Below are positions 5,849 through 48,330 of a stretch of DNA of 64,000 nucleotides, piece after piece. The notes below the pieces were generated by a model. The model did no database searches and was not told the origin of the DNA. It was given only the letters and a program-made list of their open reading frames with translations. Origin of the DNA: a virus; the IMG/VR virus record IMGVR_UViG_3300027733_000030, positions 1 to 64,000 of that record; one strand, written 5' to 3'. The stretch's first letter is position 1, and every line of letters starts with the position of its first letter. A program made the position numbers and the translations under genes.

Positions 5849-5857
5849 ATTATACCA
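5849..5857 (-). promoter_or_regulatory. extended -10 sigma70-type promoter (TGGTATAAT)
   Basis: TGnTATAAT in the intergenic gap, about 25 nt upstream of the 5823 start. Confidence 0.6.
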
Positions 5858-30107: not shown

Positions 30108-30623
30108 TTAGTAGGTACTAAAATCCGATTCCAGGTAGGAACCTTTTTCTTCTCTAAACGCAGCTACTTGCATGGACTGCATTTTGTCCATCAGCTTTCT
30201 AGCTGATTCTGATGCTATTCTAGCTGACGTTTCCATCGATTCAGCTAGGCTCATAATTGCCTCACAGGTAATCATTTCGGTATGTTGTGATTCAGCTGCT
30301 GCCATGGCTGAAGCTTCTCTTTCAGCTTCATTTTTTCCGGCTCTATTTGATTTATAAACTCTCTTATAATTACCTTCTATAATCTTATATTGTGCTCTAG
30401 ACATTCCGGCAAAGCGCGCTGCTCTACCATAAACATTAGATGTGCGGGCAACAAGTGACGCAATCGTATCTATTCCTAGATCTATAATATCAACCTCTGG
30501 AATTTCTACAAAATATTTACTATTTTTTTCTACGTCAGCATATGCTTCGATAACCTCTTTTAATTGAGGTCCAAGAAAATTCTGCAATAGTTCTTGCAAT
30601 TTTTCCATTGATTGTAAGTTCAT
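30108..30623 (-). CDS. helical hypothetical protein
   Basis: 171 aa, Ala/Glu-rich coiled-coil pattern. Confidence 0.65.
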   Translation of the reverse strand: MNLQSMEKLQELLQNFLGPQLKEVIEAYADVEKNSKYFVEIPEVDIIDLGIDTIASLVARTSNVYGRAARFAGMSRAQYKIIEGNYKRVYKSNRAGKNEAEREASAMAAAESQHTEMITCEAIMSLAESMETSARIASESARKLMDKMQSMQVAAFREEKGSYLESDFSTY

Positions 30624-31483
30624 TAATTTTTCTCCATATTAATTAGCATTGCGTATTCATTGAGATCATTTTCTAAGATTAAATCTTTTACTTTATTTTT
30701 AATTTTAGATAAGTGCTCTCTAACTGTATTCGGATGTTCATTAACTTTCTGAGATATTTCGCTGGACCTTTGCCCATCTACGTACCTCCATTTTAGAAGC
30801 TGTCTTTCTTGCACTGTTAGTCTATCAAATGGTGGAATGTTTTTCTCGCCCAAAACCCAAAATTCATCAATTTTATCTGCAGCTAATAATTGTTCCATAC
30901 TATACTCTACCGGATCTGCCTTAAAACCAATGACATAATTTTCATCACCTTCATCATTGGTGGCATCGTCGTCCAGCAATGGGAAAGTTTTTCTGCCTAA
31001 TTGATCAATGAGGAATGTATCTACATTCTTTTTTAAAAGATAAAAGAAATAACTATATAAAAAACCGCTAAAAGGAATTGGACCCTTAGCTGAATCCTTC
31101 CTTTCGTATCTGCCTATGCATTGGAAGAAAGTCATGTATACAGTCTGCCTAATGTCTTCTTCATCCCCATATCTTTTCGCCATATAATGAATACCTCTCA
31201 TGCATTCATTTATTACTCGCATATTGGATCCACTCATTTTATTTTTCATCAGAGCAAAGCGTGTTCCTGAATCCTTGATGAACAAAGAAATAAACCTTCG
31301 TATGTCATAGTCGTTCAAATTGAACTTTCCATAATATAATAGTGAAATATATTTAGTTAAAAAATTACTGAATACCTTTAATAATTCTTCTTGTGCTTTT
31401 GCTGAACCCTTTTTGGCCTTAGCGATTAGGTCTTGCATTTCATTCTCTTCTAAAGAGTAATATTGCTCCTTGTAAGCTGTCAT
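30623..31483 (-). CDS. phage RNA polymerase sigma factor (sigma70 family)
   Basis: region-2-like EDIRQTVYMTFFQCIGRYE and FSGFLYSY; region-4 HTH LTVQERQLLKWRYVDGQRSSEIS. Confidence 0.8.
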   Translation of the reverse strand: MTAYKEQYYSLEENEMQDLIAKAKKGSAKAQEELLKVFSNFLTKYISLLYYGKFNLNDYDIRRFISLFIKDSGTRFALMKNKMSGSNMRVINECMRGIHYMAKRYGDEEDIRQTVYMTFFQCIGRYERKDSAKGPIPFSGFLYSYFFYLLKKNVDTFLIDQLGRKTFPLLDDDATNDEGDENYVIGFKADPVEYSMEQLLAADKIDEFWVLGEKNIPPFDRLTVQERQLLKWRYVDGQRSSEISQKVNEHPNTVREHLSKIKNKVKDLILENDLNEYAMLINMEKN

Positions 31484-32046
31484 TTTTTACCTTCCCAGTT
31501 AACTATGTACTGACTATAAAAAACCTTTATGTCTTCGTAGAAGACAATTTGAGGAACTTCTATCTCAGCCATAAAATTCTTTGCGTCGTTTGAGTACTTA
31601 CTTATGACGCATGTCATTTTTTCGAATTCATCAGGATAATACCTTTTAAATCTTTTTAATTTAATTTTACTTTTATCATCTAGATAGCCCTTAATCTCTA
31701 CCCATTCACCATTTCGTTCTAGAAAAAAGTCAGGAGTATAACCCTTTGTTCCTCTTTTTATTGGGAAAGAAAAAACAGTAGGTTCAAATTTAAATTCTAT
31801 TTTATAAATATTTAGGATTCTAACAAAGTTAGCTTCCCAGCTGGATCTAACATTGAGTTCTATATCTTTCCTGAATCCAGTTTTAGTGTATTGGTACGCA
31901 TTGCCCTTTTTCCTTGCAAAGACCCCATCATCCTCTAGGATTACTTTATCGATCTGCTTGTTTCTGATGTTATTCAAATTAGGTTGTTTTTTAAAAGAAG
32001 ATTTTTCCAAAAAAAAGTCTTCTGCCTTGACAACATGTAGTTCCAT
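31480..32046 (-). CDS. PD-(D/E)XK endonuclease
   Basis: RSSWEANF, YTPDFFL, VEIKG; start revised to ATG 32046 (AAGGA RBS). Confidence 0.8.
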   Translation of the reverse strand: MELHVVKAEDFFLEKSSFKKQPNLNNIRNKQIDKVILEDDGVFARKKGNAYQYTKTGFRKDIELNVRSSWEANFVRILNIYKIEFKFEPTVFSFPIKRGTKGYTPDFFLERNGEWVEIKGYLDDKSKIKLKRFKRYYPDEFEKMTCVISKYSNDAKNFMAEIEVPQIVFYEDIKVFYSQYIVNWEGKK

Positions 32047-32079: not shown

Positions 32080-32143
32080 ATTATACACTAAAAAATAAAA
32101 ATATGCAAAACAACTTGCATTACCACTAAGAAGGAAGTATACT
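32080..32143. promoter_or_regulatory. back-to-back divergent sigma70 promoters
   Basis: minus: TTGCAT(32108-32103)-N17-TATAAT(32085-32080); plus: TTGCAT(32115-32120)-N17-TATACT(32138-32143). Confidence 0.75.
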
Positions 32144-32150
32144 AATCACC

Positions 32151-32315
32151 ATGAACACATTAACACACATCATCAACACAGCAATTGAAACCATTGACAA
32201 CGAAATTATCGAGGACTTGGTTGTAGACCTTGGTTATGACTACGGCGATGCCGTCAAGGTAGTCACAGAGTTCAATGATTTCGATTTTGCTATCGATTCA
32301 GATTCAACTTTCTGA
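32151..32315 (+). CDS. 54-aa highly acidic protein, leaderless (not in ORF track)
   Basis: MNTLTHIINTAIETIDNEIIEDLVVDLGYDYGDAVKVVTEFNDFDFAIDSDSTF; 13 D/E, 1 K; own promoter and terminator. Confidence 0.8.
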   Translation: MNTLTHIINTAIETIDNEIIEDLVVDLGYDYGDAVKVVTEFNDFDFAIDSDSTF

Positions 32316-32345
32316 TTCTTTTTTTTAAAAACTACGTATAGAATT

Positions 32346-32369
32346 GGGGCTGGGAAACCAGCCCCTTTT
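32346..32369 (+). terminator. rho-independent terminator between convergent genes
   Basis: GGGGCTGG-GAAA-CCAGCCCC-TTTT. Confidence 0.85.
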
Positions 32370-33173
32370 CTATTTTCCATAACTATTCTTTTTATTTCTA
32401 AAAACACCTGTTGGACACGCACCTGATTTAGCGTGATCGCAATAAGAGCATACTCTGGTATTAGCGGTGGGTGTAAAATTCTGATCAACCATTATTTTTT
32501 GAATAGTATCAATCAGTTTATTCTTAACTTCTTCAATATCTTCTTCGGTAAAAAGATGACCTTTTCTTTTTCCAGATCTTAAATAATACAACTCCGCATA
32601 GATTTCTTTTTCTGGAAATATATTATGAAGTGCAAGAGCGTATATACCGAGCTGTAGATTAGAGTGCACGTGTTTCTGTGCAACTTCCCATTTACCCGTT
32701 TTATAGTCTGTTATGTTAACTCTATCTCCAATAATGTCAACTCTATCTATAAAGCCAATTATCTTGTATGACCCTATAATAAAAGAAAAAGACATTTCCT
32801 TATCGTATATGGAGAATTCTTTATCTACATTTTGATCATAAAATTCATTCAATATAATTGATCCAACGGAAATAAGATCTGGAGTTATTTCTTGATTTGG
32901 ATCCCAAATAGGAATATTATTTTTGTATTCTTCCTGAAGTTCATTTAAGTCTAAGACTTTATTATTCTCTAAAGTATTTTCAAGAACAGCGTGGACGATA
33001 TTTCCTAGAGCAGCTGGCGCATTGAACTGTCTTGGTTCTTTCTTAATATAAGAGTAGAAGTATCTTGCCGGACATTGATCGTATGTATCTATTCTAGAGT
33101 ATGAAAAATCTACTAAACTTAATTTTTCTAAATCACTTAAGCTATCATAATTTTTAATTAATATAGAACTCAA
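32370..33173 (-). CDS. RecB/Cas4-like PD-(D/E)XK exonuclease
   Basis: SYSRI..YDQCP, GNIVH, GFIDRVD, DYKTG, QLGIY, CSYC...C. Confidence 0.88.
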   Translation of the reverse strand: MSSILIKNYDSLSDLEKLSLVDFSYSRIDTYDQCPARYFYSYIKKEPRQFNAPAALGNIVHAVLENTLENNKVLDLNELQEEYKNNIPIWDPNQEITPDLISVGSIILNEFYDQNVDKEFSIYDKEMSFSFIIGSYKIIGFIDRVDIIGDRVNITDYKTGKWEVAQKHVHSNLQLGIYALALHNIFPEKEIYAELYYLRSGKRKGHLFTEEDIEEVKNKLIDTIQKIMVDQNFTPTANTRVCSYCDHAKSGACPTGVFRNKKNSYGK

Positions 33174-33181
33174 AAATATTC

Positions 33182-33349
33182 CTACTGTTCTTCGTTGGGA
33201 TCGTATATTAATCGACCATTTTCATCGAATTCTCTTCCGATTTCATCTATAGTGTGATTATTAAGTTTATTTATATAAGCGCCCTGGCCGATTGCTACCC
33301 AACCAGTTTCACCTATTTCCATATGATCGTCTTCTTCATAGGGCCACAT
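33182..33349 (-). CDS. 55-aa acidic hypothetical protein (not in ORF track)
   Basis: MWPYEEDDHMEIGETGLVAIGQGAYINKLNNHTIDEIGREFDENGRLIYDPNEEQ; GGAGG RBS. Confidence 0.65.
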   Translation of the reverse strand: MWPYEEDDHMEIGETGWVAIGQGAYINKLNNHTIDEIGREFDENGRLIYDPNEEQ

Positions 33350-33934: not shown

Positions 33935-36900
33935 TTATTGCTCCAATTCAATTAATTGTCTAATCGCATCTTCCACTTTAGGGGATGCCTCTATCTTATA
34001 TTTGTAAATAAATTTATGTTTACCATCCAATATCTGTAAGAATACAGGACGATCACCTCGTGACGAATCAATTATATCATAAATCTTATCTATAGTCGAA
34101 GTAGATATATTCTTTTTTACATTAAAAATTATTGCCTTACCTGTGGCAAATAAGTGCGCATCTACCTTTTCACATGATGAGAAGAACAACTTACATGTGG
34201 AATTTTCTTCGTCACCCTCTTTATTTAAAGTTCCAGATATAATTACTACATCACCTTTATTGAAGTAATCATCCGCTATATTTTTTGCATTGTTTGGAAA
34301 AATAATTACTTCAACATCTGAAGAAATATCTTCTATTGATATCTTAAACATCTTCTGACCTTTTTTGGTCATTATCTTTTTGGAGGCTGTAATTATTCCC
34401 CCGACTTTTATATTTGATCCGACTTGATACTCAGATAATTCAATTATTTCGCAATCAACTTTCTTAGAAAGTATGTCCCATATTCCCATAATAGGATGAC
34501 TAGTTACATATATTCCAAGTTCTTCTTTTTCTTTTTCTAGCATTTCTATTTCTTGCAGTCTAGGATATTCCCCTAAATCTATATTCACCAATTCATCAAA
34601 TGCCCCAGCAGCTGCTAAATGTTCCAGCGTACTCTTCTTCAAAATTACAGGATCACATCTTCTGAGGAAGTCTACAATGCTCGTATATGGCTCCTCAGTG
34701 TTTCTGCAGTTGACTATTGCATCAGCTATCGATTGGCCAATTCCACTGACCGCAGACAGCCCAAATACGATTGACGTATCTCCTACTACTTCAAAGTCAA
34801 TCCCAGATTTATTGATTGACGGTGGGGAGACTTCTATATTTAATTTTCTACAGTCCGATAAATAGAATGCTTGCTTTTCTTTATTGCCAACTACTGATGA
34901 CATAAGTCCTGCCATATATTCTGTTGGATGATTTGACTTAAGATAAGCCGTGACATAACTAATCATGGCGTAACTTGCGGCGTGTGCTCTGTTAAATCCA
35001 TATCCGCCAAAGTATTCAATATCTGAGAAAATCTTATTAGCTAAAGTTTCTGACATATCAGATGTTCGAACACATCCTTCGACAAACATAGATCGCATCT
35101 TGGCAATTTTATCCATTAATTTTTTACCAATAACTTTTCTTAAATCATCAGCCTCTGCGGAAGTAAATCCTGCCAATTCTCTAGCAACTCCTAAAACATC
35201 TTCTTGATACAGCATGATTCCTAGAGACGGTGCTAGCACCTTAGCTAACTTAGGATGCTCATATTTAATTTGGCTACGACCATGTTTACGGTCAATATAT
35301 TCTTTATCCATTCCAGAACCCATTGGACCTGGTCTATATAATGAGATTAATGCCATAATGTCTTCTACGTTACGTGGTTGAAGCTGCATCATCAATTGTC
35401 TCATGCCCGATGATTCAAGTTGAAAGACTCCGGCGCAGTTACCCTTACATAATTCATCATAAGTTTTTGCGTCGTCAAGCGGAATTTTATCAACATCAAT
35501 AAGTTCGCCTTTACGCTTATGGACCAACTTGATGCAAGAGTCAATAACTCCAAGGTTTCTTAGGCCAAGAAAGTCAATCTTTAAAAGGCCACACTGCTCG
35601 ACTCTGCCCATATCCCATTGCGTAATGATTGGATTATCTACGCCCTTGCGCATGATAGGCAGGTATTCGGTTAGTGCATCCCTAGATATAACTATACCAG
35701 CAGCGTGTATGCCAGTTTGTCTTACTAGACCTTCCAGTCCAAATGCCGTATCTACAATAGTTTTGGCATCTGAGTCTTTCTCATACAGCTGTTTGAATTC
35801 TTCAACTTCCATGCACTCCGAAAGATTTTTCGAGATGCCCAATACTGGCGGAGGAACGAGTTTTGCCACTACGTCTCCACCGGCAAAATCGTAACCTAGA
35901 GCTCTGGCTGCATCTCGGATAGATTGTCTGGCGCCTGTCTTGTTGAACGTGCAAATGTGTGCAACGTGGTCAGACCCATATTTTGCTCTGGCATAGTTGA
36001 TTACTTCGTCACGATATCTATCATCAAAGTCAAGGTCGATGTCAGGCATTGATTTTCTGCCCTCAACAAGGAATCGTTCAAACATTAATCCAAATTTGAT
36101 TGGATCTAGATTTGTAATTTTAAATGCGTAGGAAAGGATACTTCCTGCTGCAGAACCGCGTCCCCAGCCAACTCTAACATTATTATTCTTGGCCCAATTT
36201 ACTAGATCTGATACAACTAAGAAATATTCAGTAAATCCCATTTCTTTTACAACACGTATTTCGTGATTAGCTCTATCTATGATATGAGAAGGTAGAGGAT
36301 CACCATATCTTTCCTTTAGGCCGCTCCAAGCTAATCTATCAAAGTAGTCCATAGGTGCTTCGAGAGTTGGAATAGGAAAGTCAGGGAAGTGAATATCACC
36401 AAAAGAAAGATTTAAATCAATCATGTCACAAACGTCCATACTATTCTTCAACCAGTCTGGATTAAACTTAGATGACATTTCATCATATGATTGAAGATAA
36501 AATTCTTCTCCAGTAAATGAGAATCTATTTGGGGTATGTATATTTGCATTAGTTGCCACGCATAACATGATGTCATGAGATCTAGCGTCGTGCTTATGTA
36601 CATAATGGCAATCCCCACTTGGGACGACCTTTGCACCAATAGTTTCTGCTATCTGCACTAATTGATTAAAGACTTTCTTTTGTTCCCCAAGACCATGATC
36701 TTGAACTTCAATAAAATAGTTTTCCTTACCAACAATATCTTGCATTTTCTTTGCAGATGAAAGAGCAAATTGATAATCATCTCTTAGCAATGCCTGGCAT
36801 ACTTCACTATTTAAACAGCCTGAAAGAACAATAATTCCTTCAGAGTGTTCTGCTATTAAATCATGATCAATACGTGGCTTAACGTAATATCCTTCTAGGA

Positions 36901-37258
36901 AAGATCTAGAAGATATTTTAATAATATTATTATAGCCAACTTTATTTTTAGCTAAAATAGTTATATGGTAAGGACCTCTTTGCTCCCATTCATTTTGTGA
37001 TGGTCCAGATCTTTCTTCAGGATCTCTATCAAATCTAGTTTTTCTAGCTTGATAAAATTCAGAACCAAGAATTGGCTTAACCCCAATAGAAGTTCCAGCG
37101 TCATAGAAGTCCAACCATGAATGTATGTTTCCATGGTCAGTAGTAGCTAAGCCTTTCATTCCTAAGGACTTAGCTCTAGTCAAGTACTGTTCTATGTCGC
37201 CATGACCGTCTAACATTGAAAAGACTGTATGGTTATGGAGGTTAGTCCAATTCTTCAT
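33935..37258 (-). CDS. dnaE: DNA polymerase III alpha subunit
   Basis: PHP domain (LHNH, TDHGN, SGC, DCHY), GRGSAAGS, PDIDLDF, KIDFLGL, FNRAHA, OB fold. Confidence 0.97.
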   Translation of the reverse strand: MKNWTNLHNHTVFSMLDGHGDIEQYLTRAKSLGMKGLATTDHGNIHSWLDFYDAGTSIGVKPILGSEFYQARKTRFDRDPEERSGPSQNEWEQRGPYHITILAKNKVGYNNIIKISSRSFLEGYYVKPRIDHDLIAEHSEGIIVLSGCLNSEVCQALLRDDYQFALSSAKKMQDIVGKENYFIEVQDHGLGEQKKVFNQLVQIAETIGAKVVPSGDCHYVHKHDARSHDIMLCVATNANIHTPNRFSFTGEEFYLQSYDEMSSKFNPDWLKNSMDVCDMIDLNLSFGDIHFPDFPIPTLEAPMDYFDRLAWSGLKERYGDPLPSHIIDRANHEIRVVKEMGFTEYFLVVSDLVNWAKNNNVRVGWGRGSAAGSILSYAFKITNLDPIKFGLMFERFLVEGRKSMPDIDLDFDDRYRDEVINYARAKYGSDHVAHICTFNKTGARQSIRDAARALGYDFAGGDVVAKLVPPPVLGISKNLSECMEVEEFKQLYEKDSDAKTIVDTAFGLEGLVRQTGIHAAGIVISRDALTEYLPIMRKGVDNPIITQWDMGRVEQCGLLKIDFLGLRNLGVIDSCIKLVHKRKGELIDVDKIPLDDAKTYDELCKGNCAGVFQLESSGMRQLMMQLQPRNVEDIMALISLYRPGPMGSGMDKEYIDRKHGRSQIKYEHPKLAKVLAPSLGIMLYQEDVLGVARELAGFTSAEADDLRKVIGKKLMDKIAKMRSMFVEGCVRTSDMSETLANKIFSDIEYFGGYGFNRAHAASYAMISYVTAYLKSNHPTEYMAGLMSSVVGNKEKQAFYLSDCRKLNIEVSPPSINKSGIDFEVVGDTSIVFGLSAVSGIGQSIADAIVNCRNTEEPYTSIVDFLRRCDPVILKKSTLEHLAAAGAFDELVNIDLGEYPRLQEIEMLEKEKEELGIYVTSHPIMGIWDILSKKVDCEIIELSEYQVGSNIKVGGIITASKKIMTKKGQKMFKISIEDISSDVEVIIFPNNAKNIADDYFNKGDVVIISGTLNKEGDEENSTCKLFFSSCEKVDAHLFATGKAIIFNVKKNISTSTIDKIYDIIDSSRGDRPVFLQILDGKHKFIYKYKIEASPKVEDAIRQLIELEQ

Positions 37259-39478: not shown

Positions 39479-40254
39479 TATTTCCATCCAATCCATTTAG
39501 AACATGCGTCGTCGTGCGGGCATTTTTTACAATAAGCTGTTAAGCCTCTTCTTGGTACAAAAGTTTCCTTGTGACACATTGTATCACACCAGTACTCTAA
39601 AGAATCTATATCTTCGCTACTAATTTCATATTCTATAAAATCTAAACTATTTGACATTAGATCAATATAGCCAAAGTTAGTTTCGTTAACTCGACTTGGA
39701 TGACGGAGTTTAAATCCCATATACATGGCAGAAAAATCAACTTGATACATGTGTCTATGATTTGTCTTATAATTAAAAAGAAGTTTTGTTACGTAATTTT
39801 TATTATCTTTTCTAATTATTAAATCAAATTTATCTACTATCTTAATTTCTTTGTTAATAATTGCTATATACTCTTCAGATATAGCTAGAGGAATCATATC
39901 AACGTCTGAATAAGTTTCATGAAACGTAAGTAGTATACTTGCTGCCTTTGTAGTCAAGCTAGCCATATTTCCATACATGCTCTCATGTTGTTCAGTGGCT
40001 ATATCATAATGATCCACATTTTTTGGGAACCATAATTTTTCCCATCTATTTAAAAGAGATGCATAGGAGGGACTAATGCCTGCTTGTTTTTTAAACCAAA
40101 AGAAATAAATAATATTCTTAATAGTTGATTCAAATTTAGCAGTGTATATATCTCTTGAATAAACTTTTTCAGGAAGTTTATCACGATATCTAAAATCATA
40201 TAATCTCTCACAAGTTTGAAAATCCTTAATTGCTTCTACATTTAATTCTAGCAT
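39478..40254 (-). CDS. PD-(D/E)XK-fold protein (RecB-like, possibly degenerate)
   Basis: FQTCERLY, KFDLI, CKKCPHDDAC. Confidence 0.6.
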   Translation of the reverse strand: MLELNVEAIKDFQTCERLYDFRYRDKLPEKVYSRDIYTAKFESTIKNIIYFFWFKKQAGISPSYASLLNRWEKLWFPKNVDHYDIATEQHESMYGNMASLTTKAASILLTFHETYSDVDMIPLAISEEYIAIINKEIKIVDKFDLIIRKDNKNYVTKLLFNYKTNHRHMYQVDFSAMYMGFKLRHPSRVNETNFGYIDLMSNSLDFIEYEISSEDIDSLEYWCDTMCHKETFVPRRGLTAYCKKCPHDDACSKWIGWK

Positions 40255-41717
40255 TAGTCAAAACCTTCTCCACTTAATAGTTCTTGAAGATCTGTTGACT
40301 CTGAATATGATTGATCACTAATGACTTCATAATCTTCATAGATTTTTTTTGCATCGTTATATCTTACTAAAGGTGGATCGTACATGAATGCAGAACCAGT
40401 AATTCTATTTTTAGGTATTTGAAGCTGCATTATATTTTCATCTTCTGTTTCATCATTTGAAGCCAAACGTTTTTCTGTAATGAAAATTGTAACTGCGCAC
40501 TTTTGCTGAATAGCTAAAGATCCACCTGTATCTGATTGCTGTACAACTTCTCTTTTTTCTTTCATTCTGTTTGAGTTTTCCTGGGCAGTTATGATCATAG
40601 CGCAGTTCATATCTCTGGCAAGTTTTTCTAGTCTAACCATCATTTCTTCAAACTCGCCCCATCTTGGCTTGCCCTTACCACTACCACGGGTAAACATAGA
40701 TTGAATAGTGTCAATGATAACTACATCTGGCATATCTCCAGTGTGACCTATTAAATCTCTTAACCAAAACTCAAGGTCTTCAAAATATGGAGTCTCAGGA
40801 TCATGACGAACCATTAATCTGTCTCCCCACTCTTCAAGTTTTGATTTAAACTTAGCCAAGTAAAACTGCTTTTTTTCTTCACTCCATTTATGAGCTTCTG
40901 AATAAACATTTTCACCAATGATTTGAGTCATAAGAATTCTCTCCCAGTGACCCAAAGCTTCTTCAAAGTTTACATACAAAACTCTATAACCAGTATCTAA
41001 CCAATTATTAGCTAGACACTTAGCGAAGGTACTTTTTCCCTTGCCTGAGGGGGCGATAATTGCGTGTACAGCGCCCTTGAAGAATCCACCCTCATCCGTA
41101 TAGCCCATGGCTCTATTTAGAGCTTTAAATTGCGTTGGCACGAAGTCAGGTATATCCAGCAAACGATCAGCTCTATTTAGAATGTCATTAGCTGTAGTTA
41201 ATTTACTAAATGGGTCGTATTTAATTTGATTTTCAAGATCTTTAATTAAAGAAGTTAAATCATTAATGCGATCAATATCTTCTTGTGATTTCAAACCTTT
41301 TTTATTAATAAGTATTTGAAGTTCTTGAAGATTGAGAATCTGTTTACGCTTATTTGCCTTGTGTTTGATTAATTCAACGACTGATTCTTTTGTAGAAGAA
41401 TCCAGACTAAGAATATAATCTATCATTATTCCTACGCCGGAAGAGCCACCAAGTGCATCATATATATCCGTCTCACTAGACAGCCATGATTTAAATGCTA
41501 TTGGATCAACTATATCTAAATTAGTTGCTCGATAAAAACCAAGAAGCGCACCATAGAATTCGTGGATTCCTTTTTCGCCATGAATCATACCAACTATATC
41601 TTGTGGAAGATTTTCGTCAAAATAGGATATCGCACCCTGCTCTTTTAGGCAAAGTGCGAATGCCTGGTATTCTAGTGGGGTTTCTTGTGATTCTTCTATT
41701 TCTTCAAGTGCCATCAA
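40254..41717 (-). CDS. dnaB: DnaB-like replicative helicase
   Basis: APSGKGKST Walker A, VNFEE, VIIDTIQ, ITAQEN, KNR. Confidence 0.85.
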   Translation of the reverse strand: MMALEEIEESQETPLEYQAFALCLKEQGAISYFDENLPQDIVGMIHGEKGIHEFYGALLGFYRATNLDIVDPIAFKSWLSSETDIYDALGGSSGVGIMIDYILSLDSSTKESVVELIKHKANKRKQILNLQELQILINKKGLKSQEDIDRINDLTSLIKDLENQIKYDPFSKLTTANDILNRADRLLDIPDFVPTQFKALNRAMGYTDEGGFFKGAVHAIIAPSGKGKSTFAKCLANNWLDTGYRVLYVNFEEALGHWERILMTQIIGENVYSEAHKWSEEKKQFYLAKFKSKLEEWGDRLMVRHDPETPYFEDLEFWLRDLIGHTGDMPDVVIIDTIQSMFTRGSGKGKPRWGEFEEMMVRLEKLARDMNCAMIITAQENSNRMKEKREVVQQSDTGGSLAIQQKCAVTIFITEKRLASNDETEDENIMQLQIPKNRITGSAFMYDPPLVRYNDAKKIYEDYEVISDQSYSESTDLQELLSGEGFD

Positions 41718-47271: not shown

Positions 47272-47981
47272 GATACACCAGTTAATAGTGGTATTGATAC
47301 AGGAAATTTATCAATAATTAAATCTTTAACAGCGCGAGCATAGTCTTGAATTTCTCTTTGGGCGTCTTCTTCAAGGCGTTGATTTAGGAATAGGGCTACT
47401 GATTGCAGGCTGCATGACCATCTATAAATGACATACATTCCATATGCTGGAAGGAATAGTCTTGCTTGTTCAGCTGCTACACCATTTTGCATTGCCATAT
47501 TATAAAGAGCTTCTCCCTGTTGAATATAGTCTTCTAATTGTTGAGTCAAAAGCGTTCCAGTCCAAGGGTCAAGGGGTCCTCCGGATCCCTGTTTTTTATT
47601 GTCTGGTGCCAGTCTCCATTCTTCTTGTGATGGAATATAAAATTCAGGTTCAGAAGTTATATATCTTCTACTAGATTCATTCCATGAATCCATAGTATGA
47701 TCAGATCCAATAACATACTTCCAATGCTGACGAGCAACCATTAACGGTGCCTTAATTTCAAAAGTCATAAACGCATGTCTGAAAGGTGACATATGATTTT
47801 CTCTTGCTAAATAATCGATTAATCGTGCATCTCTTGCAGATAAAGTAGTTGATTCTTTAGCGAAAGAAGCTCGTGCGGCATTGGCTACACTAAGATCTGA
47901 ACCCATTACGTCTACTAATCTTACGTAACCTTTATCTAAAACTTTTTTAATGGAGGGTTCATTAACTGAATCATATTCCAT
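47268..47981 (-). CDS. thyX: FAD-dependent thymidylate synthase
   Basis: HMSPF, ARQHWKY, SWNESSRRY, AQREI; GGAG RBS before MEYDS. Confidence 0.93.
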   Translation of the reverse strand: MEYDSVNEPSIKKVLDKGYVRLVDVMGSDLSVANAARASFAKESTTLSARDARLIDYLARENHMSPFRHAFMTFEIKAPLMVARQHWKYVIGSDHTMDSWNESSRRYITSEPEFYIPSQEEWRLAPDNKKQGSGGPLDPWTGTLLTQQLEDYIQQGEALYNMAMQNGVAAEQARLFLPAYGMYVIYRWSCSLQSVALFLNQRLEEDAQREIQDYARAVKDLIIDKFPVSIPLLTGVS

Positions 47982-48330
47982 TTTCATCTCCTTCATCATC
48001 TATGTCAAAATCAGAGTAATATTCTACCATACATTCATTAAAATCTTCAGATATTTTATAGAGCGAAGACAATAAACTACTGTAAACGTTATGCCCAGTA
48101 GTTATTAATTGTTCTTCTCCATCAACTGCATTTATTAGAACTTCAGATATATGGCTCATTGCATCTGATAAAGATTGCTGGATTAAAAGAAGTTCCTTTA
48201 ATCCAAGTTTTACATCTTTTTCAAAATGATCTGACATATCTTTTAATTCATCTGAACTAACAATTTCAGTAAATATTTTTTCAAAATCTTCATTATCAAA
48301 GTTTTCTTTTTCAGGCATGGTATTTGTCAC
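47971..48330 (-). CDS. acidic hypothetical protein
   Basis: 119 aa, coupled between nrdJ and thyX. Confidence 0.65.
   Translation of the reverse strand: MTNTMPEKENFDNEDFEKIFTEIVSSDELKDMSDHFEKDVKLGLKELLLIQQSLSDAMSHISEVLINAVDGEEQLITTGHNVYSSLLSSLYKISEDFNECMVEYYSDFDIDDEGDENGI

Follow-up and report, generated by a model that had tools for sequence, protein, structure and literature searches.

A probably leaderless, opposite-strand gene for a small acidic protein ending in phenylalanine is conserved in the replication module of a freshwater phage family

We detected a small plus-strand gene in a 64-kb stretch of virus DNA (hereafter the window) whose minus strand holds nearly all genes, and comparison with relatives showed that it is real and under purifying selection, not a chance ORF. 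It is a fixed single-copy core gene of a phage family, not a variable accessory gene, and its 54-residue acidic product (~6 kDa) represents an unannotated new family, with no entry in Pfam, PHROGs, the PDB or the cultured-phage records. The mRNA is probably leaderless, judging from the spacing of promoter and start codon, with transcription predicted to start at the A of the ATG. The product is without enzyme-like or DNA-binding features and most likely works stoichiometrically by binding another protein, and the known kind to which the family belongs is that of the small acidic phage proteins acting by binding.

The window contains an array of about 60 kb of minus-strand genes, and the unit of the small gene (32115-32378) runs opposite to it, in the 281-bp gap between a resolvase-like and an exonuclease gene (Table 1). 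The first-pass annotation had described a mini transcription unit against the genome direction, and the promoter, reading frame and terminator could all be read there, together with the 7-nt distance from the -10 hexamer to the ATG; the ORF, at 54 aa, falls below the 60-aa default of the ORF lister. The GC-rich terminator named in the same annotation has a stem of 8 bp with seven G-C pairs, a GAAA loop and a T run, which reaches into the 3' end of the convergent exonuclease gene, covering its final codons and stop. Both convergent units, that of the small gene and that of the exonuclease, have this hairpin in common, and most of the distant relatives inspected carry a terminator hairpin with compensatory changes and a GNRA-type loop.

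Table 1. Features of the plus-strand unit and its flanks, by position in the window
Feature	Position	Strand	Remarks
Endonuclease I / Holliday-junction-resolvase-like gene	31480-32046	-	Left flank
Divergent partner promoter: -35 TTGCAT (32108-32103), 17 nt, -10 TATAAT (32085-32080)	32080-32108	-	10/12 consensus match; kept in relatives
-35 hexamer of the small gene, TTGCAT	32115-32120	+	Sequence reading; invariant in close relatives
Promoter spacer of the small gene	17 nt between 32120 and 32138	+	Sequence reading
-10 hexamer of the small gene, TATACT	32138-32143	+	Sequence reading; TAnnnT kept in relatives
-10-to-ATG gap, 7 nt	32144-32150	+	Sequence reading
Coding sequence, 54 codons and TGA (32313-32315)	32151-32315	+	ATG at 32151, predicted leaderless start
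Intrinsic terminator, hairpin (32346-32365) and T run	32346-32378	+	Sequence reading
PD-(D/E)XK, Cas4-like exonuclease gene	32370-33173	-	Right flank, convergent with the small gene

The promoter of the small gene matches the consensus at 8 of 12 positions (-35 3/6, -10 5/6) and a generic promoter scan did not list it, so that its earlier description as near-consensus was overstated. The argument for the promoter is comparative. Close relatives keep both hexamers unchanged, while no other stretch of the region varies as much as the intervening spacer. The arrangement of TTGnnn, 16-18 nt, TAnnnT, exactly 7 nt and ATG, as in the window, recurs in 28 of the 39 distinct upstream regions of relatives, among which the hexamer spellings and the 7-nt stretch differ. 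The -35 hexamer of distant relatives reads TTGACA, TTGCAA, TTGTAA or similar and is always 16-18 nt before the -10; the leaderless-type arrangement is present with the 7-nt gap in L105 and with a 6-nt gap in L083. A constant gap despite the drift of the sequence is as expected of a leaderless mRNA beginning at the A of the AUG. About 11 distinct relatives, or about a quarter, have no -10 at that position and instead carry, 6-11 nt upstream of the start codon, a purine-rich tract that resembles a Shine-Dalgarno sequence (L016, L081, L082, L086, L087, L089, L094, L097, L098, L102 and L103), and the leaderless forms have a similar purine tract inside the promoter spacer. The presence of both start modes among the relatives suggests that the family switched between leaderless and Shine-Dalgarno-led starts.

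The start at ATG 32151 was assigned against a 16-codon N-terminal extension, which is open in relatives, where gene callers add it (database entries of 70-72 aa). We rejected this extension: it is closed in the window by an in-frame TAA (32127-32129), varies freely and coincides with the -35 region.

The partner promoter on the minus strand is stronger than that of the small gene and heads an operon of the resolvase-like, sigma-like (286 aa), 171-aa and RNase H genes. The two promoters stand back to back at 32080-32143 with their -35 hexamers 6 bp apart (ATGCAA-N6-TTGCAT on the plus strand), an arrangement with one instance within the window and conserved in relatives, and they may compete or be co-regulated. 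An extended -10 reading of the partner promoter was rejected: the TG abuts the hexamer and is not at the TGn position. Elsewhere in the window, 11 of the 13 TGNTATAAT motifs are on the gene strand, several of them just 5' of gene starts (minus-strand positions 5849, 19619, 23539, 29407, 51094 and others). The total of 13 against 7.4 expected is not significantly above chance; these motifs may represent an extended -10 promoter class.

For the comparison, 80 IMG/VR loci were fetched via the neighbouring exonuclease, the small gene not being used as bait. A homologue of the small gene was found on the opposite strand just past the exonuclease in 76 of the 80 loci, or 76 of the 77 informative ones, and the self-contained, leaderless, opposite-strand unit for an acidic protein that had been proposed from the window is an arrangement kept in relatives. 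Three of the four exceptions have too little flank and the fourth, L069, is a clean deletion. A relative of 193,906 nt that is 92% complete (the record behind L043) has a single copy, about 114 kb into the record. The immediate-early label given to the gene in the first-pass annotation found no support; the gene lies mid-genome, within the replication module. The first close database proteins were six, with 79-98% identity, and an exhaustive profile search of 1.84 billion representatives added about 19 divergent proteins of 48-84 aa, while nucleotide and tblastn searches of 50,697 cultured-phage records detected no relative.

Several copies depart from the common form. The L069 deletion removed the small gene together with its terminator and left the promoter adjoining the exonuclease end. 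In L070, whose protein is common to six loci, the canonical start is ATT and the sole in-frame ATG is within the -10 hexamer, and in L093 the start codon reads ACG; decay of the gene, sequencing error or an unusual start may explain the three variants. In P0002 the stop reads Trp, which adds eight residues to the protein and buries the terminal Phe, possibly a sequencing error in a single short contig (542 nt).

The pattern of substitution is that of a protein-coding gene. Variable sites among close relatives number 18, 7 and 3 at codon positions 3, 1 and 2, and dN/dS is 0.12-0.34 in the frame of the small gene, the other five frames all containing stops. One lineage has a 6-nt in-frame insertion, and the amino-acid conservation of the protein reaches down to 25-50% identity. 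We therefore regard it as extremely improbable that the ORF is non-functional and the region only a promoter-terminator boundary or a small RNA. What could be said for it is that translation is deduced from sequence comparison, that the locus is an operon boundary with a shared hairpin and that a few relatives have start-codon changes or a deletion; against it stand the codon-position pattern, the dN/dS below 0.35 in this frame only, the in-frame indel and the depth of conservation, and an Rfam search of the region gave chance-level matches only.

The small protein is conserved, yet it changes faster than the surrounding replication genes. Its dN is 0.04-0.10 against 0.007-0.058 in the neighbours, where dN/dS is mostly 0.01-0.09 (0.19 in one pair of a neighbouring 55-aa gene), so that its non-synonymous rate is 3-5 times that of its replication neighbours. 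Its dS is about 0.29 against mostly 0.3-1.2 (0.11 in one close pair), and this lower value is consistent with constrained silent sites. The faster protein evolution is at least as compatible with a factor that faces the host as with a part of the replisome.

The codon usage of the small gene is unlike that of its neighbours, as had been noticed before the comparison. Of its 27 Asn, Asp, Tyr, Phe, His and Ile-ATY codons 16 end in C, a C/(C+T) fraction of 0.59 against 0.24 in 58 other genes (binomial p = 1e-4). This is the highest among 63 genes, and relatives retain the preference (mean 0.58). Strand mutation bias was rejected as the source, as it would predict 0.19. The preference in leaderless members is 0.70 in the first half of the gene and 0.48 in the second, and the 5' third of the coding sequence is C+A-rich and G-poor: nucleotides 4-45 are 77% A+C and 6% G, against 54% and 18% in the window's other genes. 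A CA-rich stretch following the AUG is reported to increase the translation of leaderless mRNA; on this basis, initiation probably accounts for part of the C-ending bias and efficient elongation for the rest. The product is probably well expressed and abundant, as far as codon usage and promoter quality can tell.

The 54 residues include 9 Asp, 4 Glu, 1 Lys and 1 His, confirming the earlier count of 13 acidic residues (24%) and one Lys, and the net charge is about -12 (-7 to -13 in the family). Two AlphaFold2 runs, on alignments of 6 and 16 sequences, agree (mean pLDDT 78 and 76) and predict helices at residues 3-26 and 31-42, joined by a short turn and followed by a tail of low confidence. 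The first predicted helix is twice the length of the second and has a conserved hydrophobic stripe on its N-terminal half, unpaired in the model, suggesting dimerisation or a partner. The tail is predicted to be disordered and is rich in Asp, Glu and aromatics. The family consensus runs from a conserved N-terminus through an I-N-E-E-I-I-x-D-L stretch to a Gly-aromatic turn, and continues through A-V-K-x-V-T-E-F, a D-F-D-L block (together a conserved EF-x-DFDL block) and often N-P-V to a final D-F. All 34 distinct proteins derived from IMG/VR terminate in Phe, and one distant member ends in Leu instead. The penultimate residue is Asp in 22 of the 34 and otherwise Asn, Ser or Thr, never Pro; where the tail has a Pro, it is at about -4. 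The most conserved features are thus the hydrophobic helix face and the C-terminal Phe, and to judge by the alignment they would favour docking of a peptide in a pocket at least as much as rigid DNA mimicry.

Searches by sequence and fold did not connect the protein to a known family. Pfam and PHROGs have no family for the window protein, Foldseek against the PDB and BFVD returned nothing at E <= 0.001, and an ESM Atlas search gave no usable match. A wide VIA fold search reached a best Z of 6.0, all matches being generic helical hairpins, many of them dimerisation domains. No fused or longer forms were found, which is weak evidence, the long matches in the exhaustive HMM search being repetitive proteins only.

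The genes around the small gene form a replication and recombination module of DnaE, an HD protein, a DnaB-like helicase, RNase H, dCMP deaminase, ThyX, the resolvase-like gene and the exonuclease. The small gene is always convergent with the exonuclease and its left-hand neighbour changes in the most distant members, so that the constant neighbour is the exonuclease and not the sigma-like gene. Immediately 5' of the exonuclease gene is a second small acidic protein (33182-33349, minus strand), which is conserved, 55 aa long and has a tail net charge of -5. The 171-aa protein (30108-30623, minus strand) has no family match and a C-terminus, D-F-[SNK]-T-Y, that is kept even in the most distant relatives, and is a second module protein whose end is both aromatic and acidic. 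The last residues of the helicase (40254-41717) are G-E-G-F-D, and a 119-aa protein (47971-48330) has a DFDID-rich acidic end. The only SSB-like gene in the 92% complete relative (L100:1408-1833, minus strand) encodes a separate protein of 141 aa with a Ser-rich, non-acidic tail ending in I-P-S-S-F; the gene next to it (L100:674-1408, minus strand) has by eye the look of the Cys-rich uracil-DNA glycosylase family. No sliding clamp (PF00712) was found in the 92% complete relative behind L043, despite its DnaE-type polymerase, and the DnaE of the window (33935-37258) is by eye without an obvious clamp-binding pentapeptide after the helix-hairpin-helix region. A host-like gene of 872 aa had no match in 185,579 genomes.

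We tentatively favour, as possible rather than probable, a stoichiometric docking or decoy protein, or an adaptor, acting on a host or phage DNA-metabolism protein. This reading is drawn from the disordered acidic tail ending in Phe, a hallmark of the SSB, T7 gp2.5 and T7 gp4 tails, and the replication and recombination setting fits it. The tail, anchored by its terminal Phe, would dock into a basic or hydrophobic site on a host or phage protein of DNA replication or recombination, a site of the kind normally occupied by nucleic acid or by acidic Phe-ended tails, and the helical part would be a handle for dimerisation or for a second contact. In this way the protein might compete with the normal ligands or serve as a decoy, so that, for instance, a nuclease, clamp or SSB client of the host is blocked; alternatively, within the same scheme, it might be an adaptor in the phage replisome. 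The most specific form of the proposal, in which an abundant, free-standing tail of the SSB or gp2.5 style on a helical handle competes with the tails that SSB or replisome proteins carry for docking pockets on genome-maintenance enzymes of the host or the phage, appears doubtful, and a literature search found no stand-alone tail-decoy protein of that kind.

The precedents are partial. The protein shares with T7 gp2.5, T7 gp4 and the bacterial SSB tip a disordered, Asp/Glu-rich tail with Phe as the last residue and a gene placed among replication and recombination genes. It differs from them in being a stand-alone protein, whose tail is carried by a helical hairpin of 40 residues and not by an OB fold or a helicase. 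The fit to the docking tails is imperfect also in sequence: bacterial SSB tips of the IPF/PPF type have a Pro beside the terminal Phe, which is absent here, as is the OB fold. The acidic tail and terminal Phe of gp2.5 bind the T7 polymerase and helicase, while contact of the tail with the gp6 exonuclease is the authors' inference from unpublished data (PMC12339929, PMC4124056).

Small phage proteins can also block the host sliding clamp, as Gp168 of phage Twort does through stoichiometric binding (PMC8565349). Our protein resembles Gp168 in being a small phage protein and in a DFDL block that loosely recalls clamp-binding peptides; the two have no sequence similarity and the fit to the clamp motif is partial. 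In the family the block is [DEG]-[FY]-[DE]-[LFI]-x. The clamp pentapeptide consensus is of the QL[SD]LF type, with Gln at position 1 and hydrophobic residues at positions 2, 4 and 5. The family block agrees at positions 2 and 4, lacks Gln at position 1 throughout and is variable at position 5; the DFDL block fits at only about 3 of the 5 positions. A putative QFDLF clamp motif of mycobacterial DnaE1 was not used as support, a full-text literature search having found no paper on it.

T7 gp5.9 and lambda Gam, which inhibit the RecBCD nuclease of the host, are likewise tiny, helical and acidic, and are encoded beside the phage's own exonuclease, as the small gene is. Homology to them is not detectable; lambda GamS was among the generic helical-hairpin matches of the fold search with a Z of 4.9, which is not significant. 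No Phe-ended tail is known in gp5.9 or Gam.

The explanation proposed from the sequence of the window had been that the product is a candidate DNA mimic or anti-defence factor, akin to Ocr, Ugi/p56 and several anti-CRISPRs, and an immediate-early inhibitor of restriction, CRISPR, UDG or host RNA polymerase. As a classical mimic like Ocr, ArdA or an anti-CRISPR, the acidic hairpin would form a dimer that resembles double-stranded DNA, and this dimer would block a host enzyme of restriction, BREX, CRISPR or a similar DNA-binding defence early in infection. We consider this somewhat unlikely. The acidity of the protein (24% Asp and Glu, net charge about -12), the absence of an enzymatic domain, a bacterial-type promoter of its own that is independent of the surrounding operons and a non-synonymous rate several times that of the neighbours, as expected of host-facing proteins, are all in its favour, and small size, acidity and expression from host promoters are traits of the known mimics (PMC3439906, PMC7261183). 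However, no sequence or fold link to these inhibitors or to any solved mimic was detected, and a sequence-profile search of the PDB at E <= 10 returned no match to any DNA mimic. The protein is about half the size of Ocr and ArdA, with no more than about 40 residues predicted to be ordered, and its best-conserved positions form no charge array, being hydrophobic apart from one Lys and the terminal Phe. Its gene is a core gene fixed inside the replication module and not part of a variable early or accessory region. The anatomy described by the first-pass annotation is thus backed by comparison, whereas the kinship to DNA mimics and the timing are not; the protein may be an inhibitor, and the target class named there was a guess.

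The divergent arrangement of the promoters raises the alternative that the protein modulates the host RNA polymerase or its sigma factor, following the logic of T4 AsiA, T7 Gp2 or gp39/gp76 of Thermus phage P23-45, and is made alongside the phage sigma-like protein from one promoter hub, so as to retune transcription in the host. The small gene is divergent from the promoter of the sigma-like gene, with the -35 hexamers 6 bp apart, and its own promoter is -35-dependent, whereas TGnTATAAT motifs occur almost only on the gene strand. These motifs are not significantly enriched, though (13 found, 7.4 expected), the protein has no similarity to AsiA, Gp2 or gp39/gp76, its tail motif has no tie to polymerase binding and the neighbour that stays constant is the exonuclease; we regard this alternative as unlikely. 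Another kind of adaptor, either a UBA-like reader of phage ubiquitin-like tagging or an acidic chaperone for the tiny Lys-rich proteins encoded at ~26-28 kb, seems quite improbable. The Pfam UBA family (PF00627) is touched by 9 of the 34 members, all under the cut-off (best 22.1 bits against 22.4), through residues 15-35, and the PDB sequence-profile search had weak rows for RuvA domain III and UBA chains; the likeness extends over helix 1, the loop and helix 2 of the UBA profile. But the match covers only positions 1-21 of the 37 in the profile, about half of it, the gathering threshold is not reached over the whole profile and the window's own protein has no Pfam UBA match. AlphaFold2 gives two helices and not three, and the Gly-aromatic loop is not conserved across the family.

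Taken together, the small gene encodes a core product of a widespread family of uncultured lake phages with genomes of roughly 190 kb. If its tail is a docking decoy, it would point to a replication or repair protein, of the host or of the phage, as the target of takeover, and it would provide a minimal peptide probe for that site. Whatever the function of the product, the locus is a clean natural series for leaderless translation, in which close relatives switch start modes and the leaderless forms carry a C+A-rich, G-poor 5' coding region.
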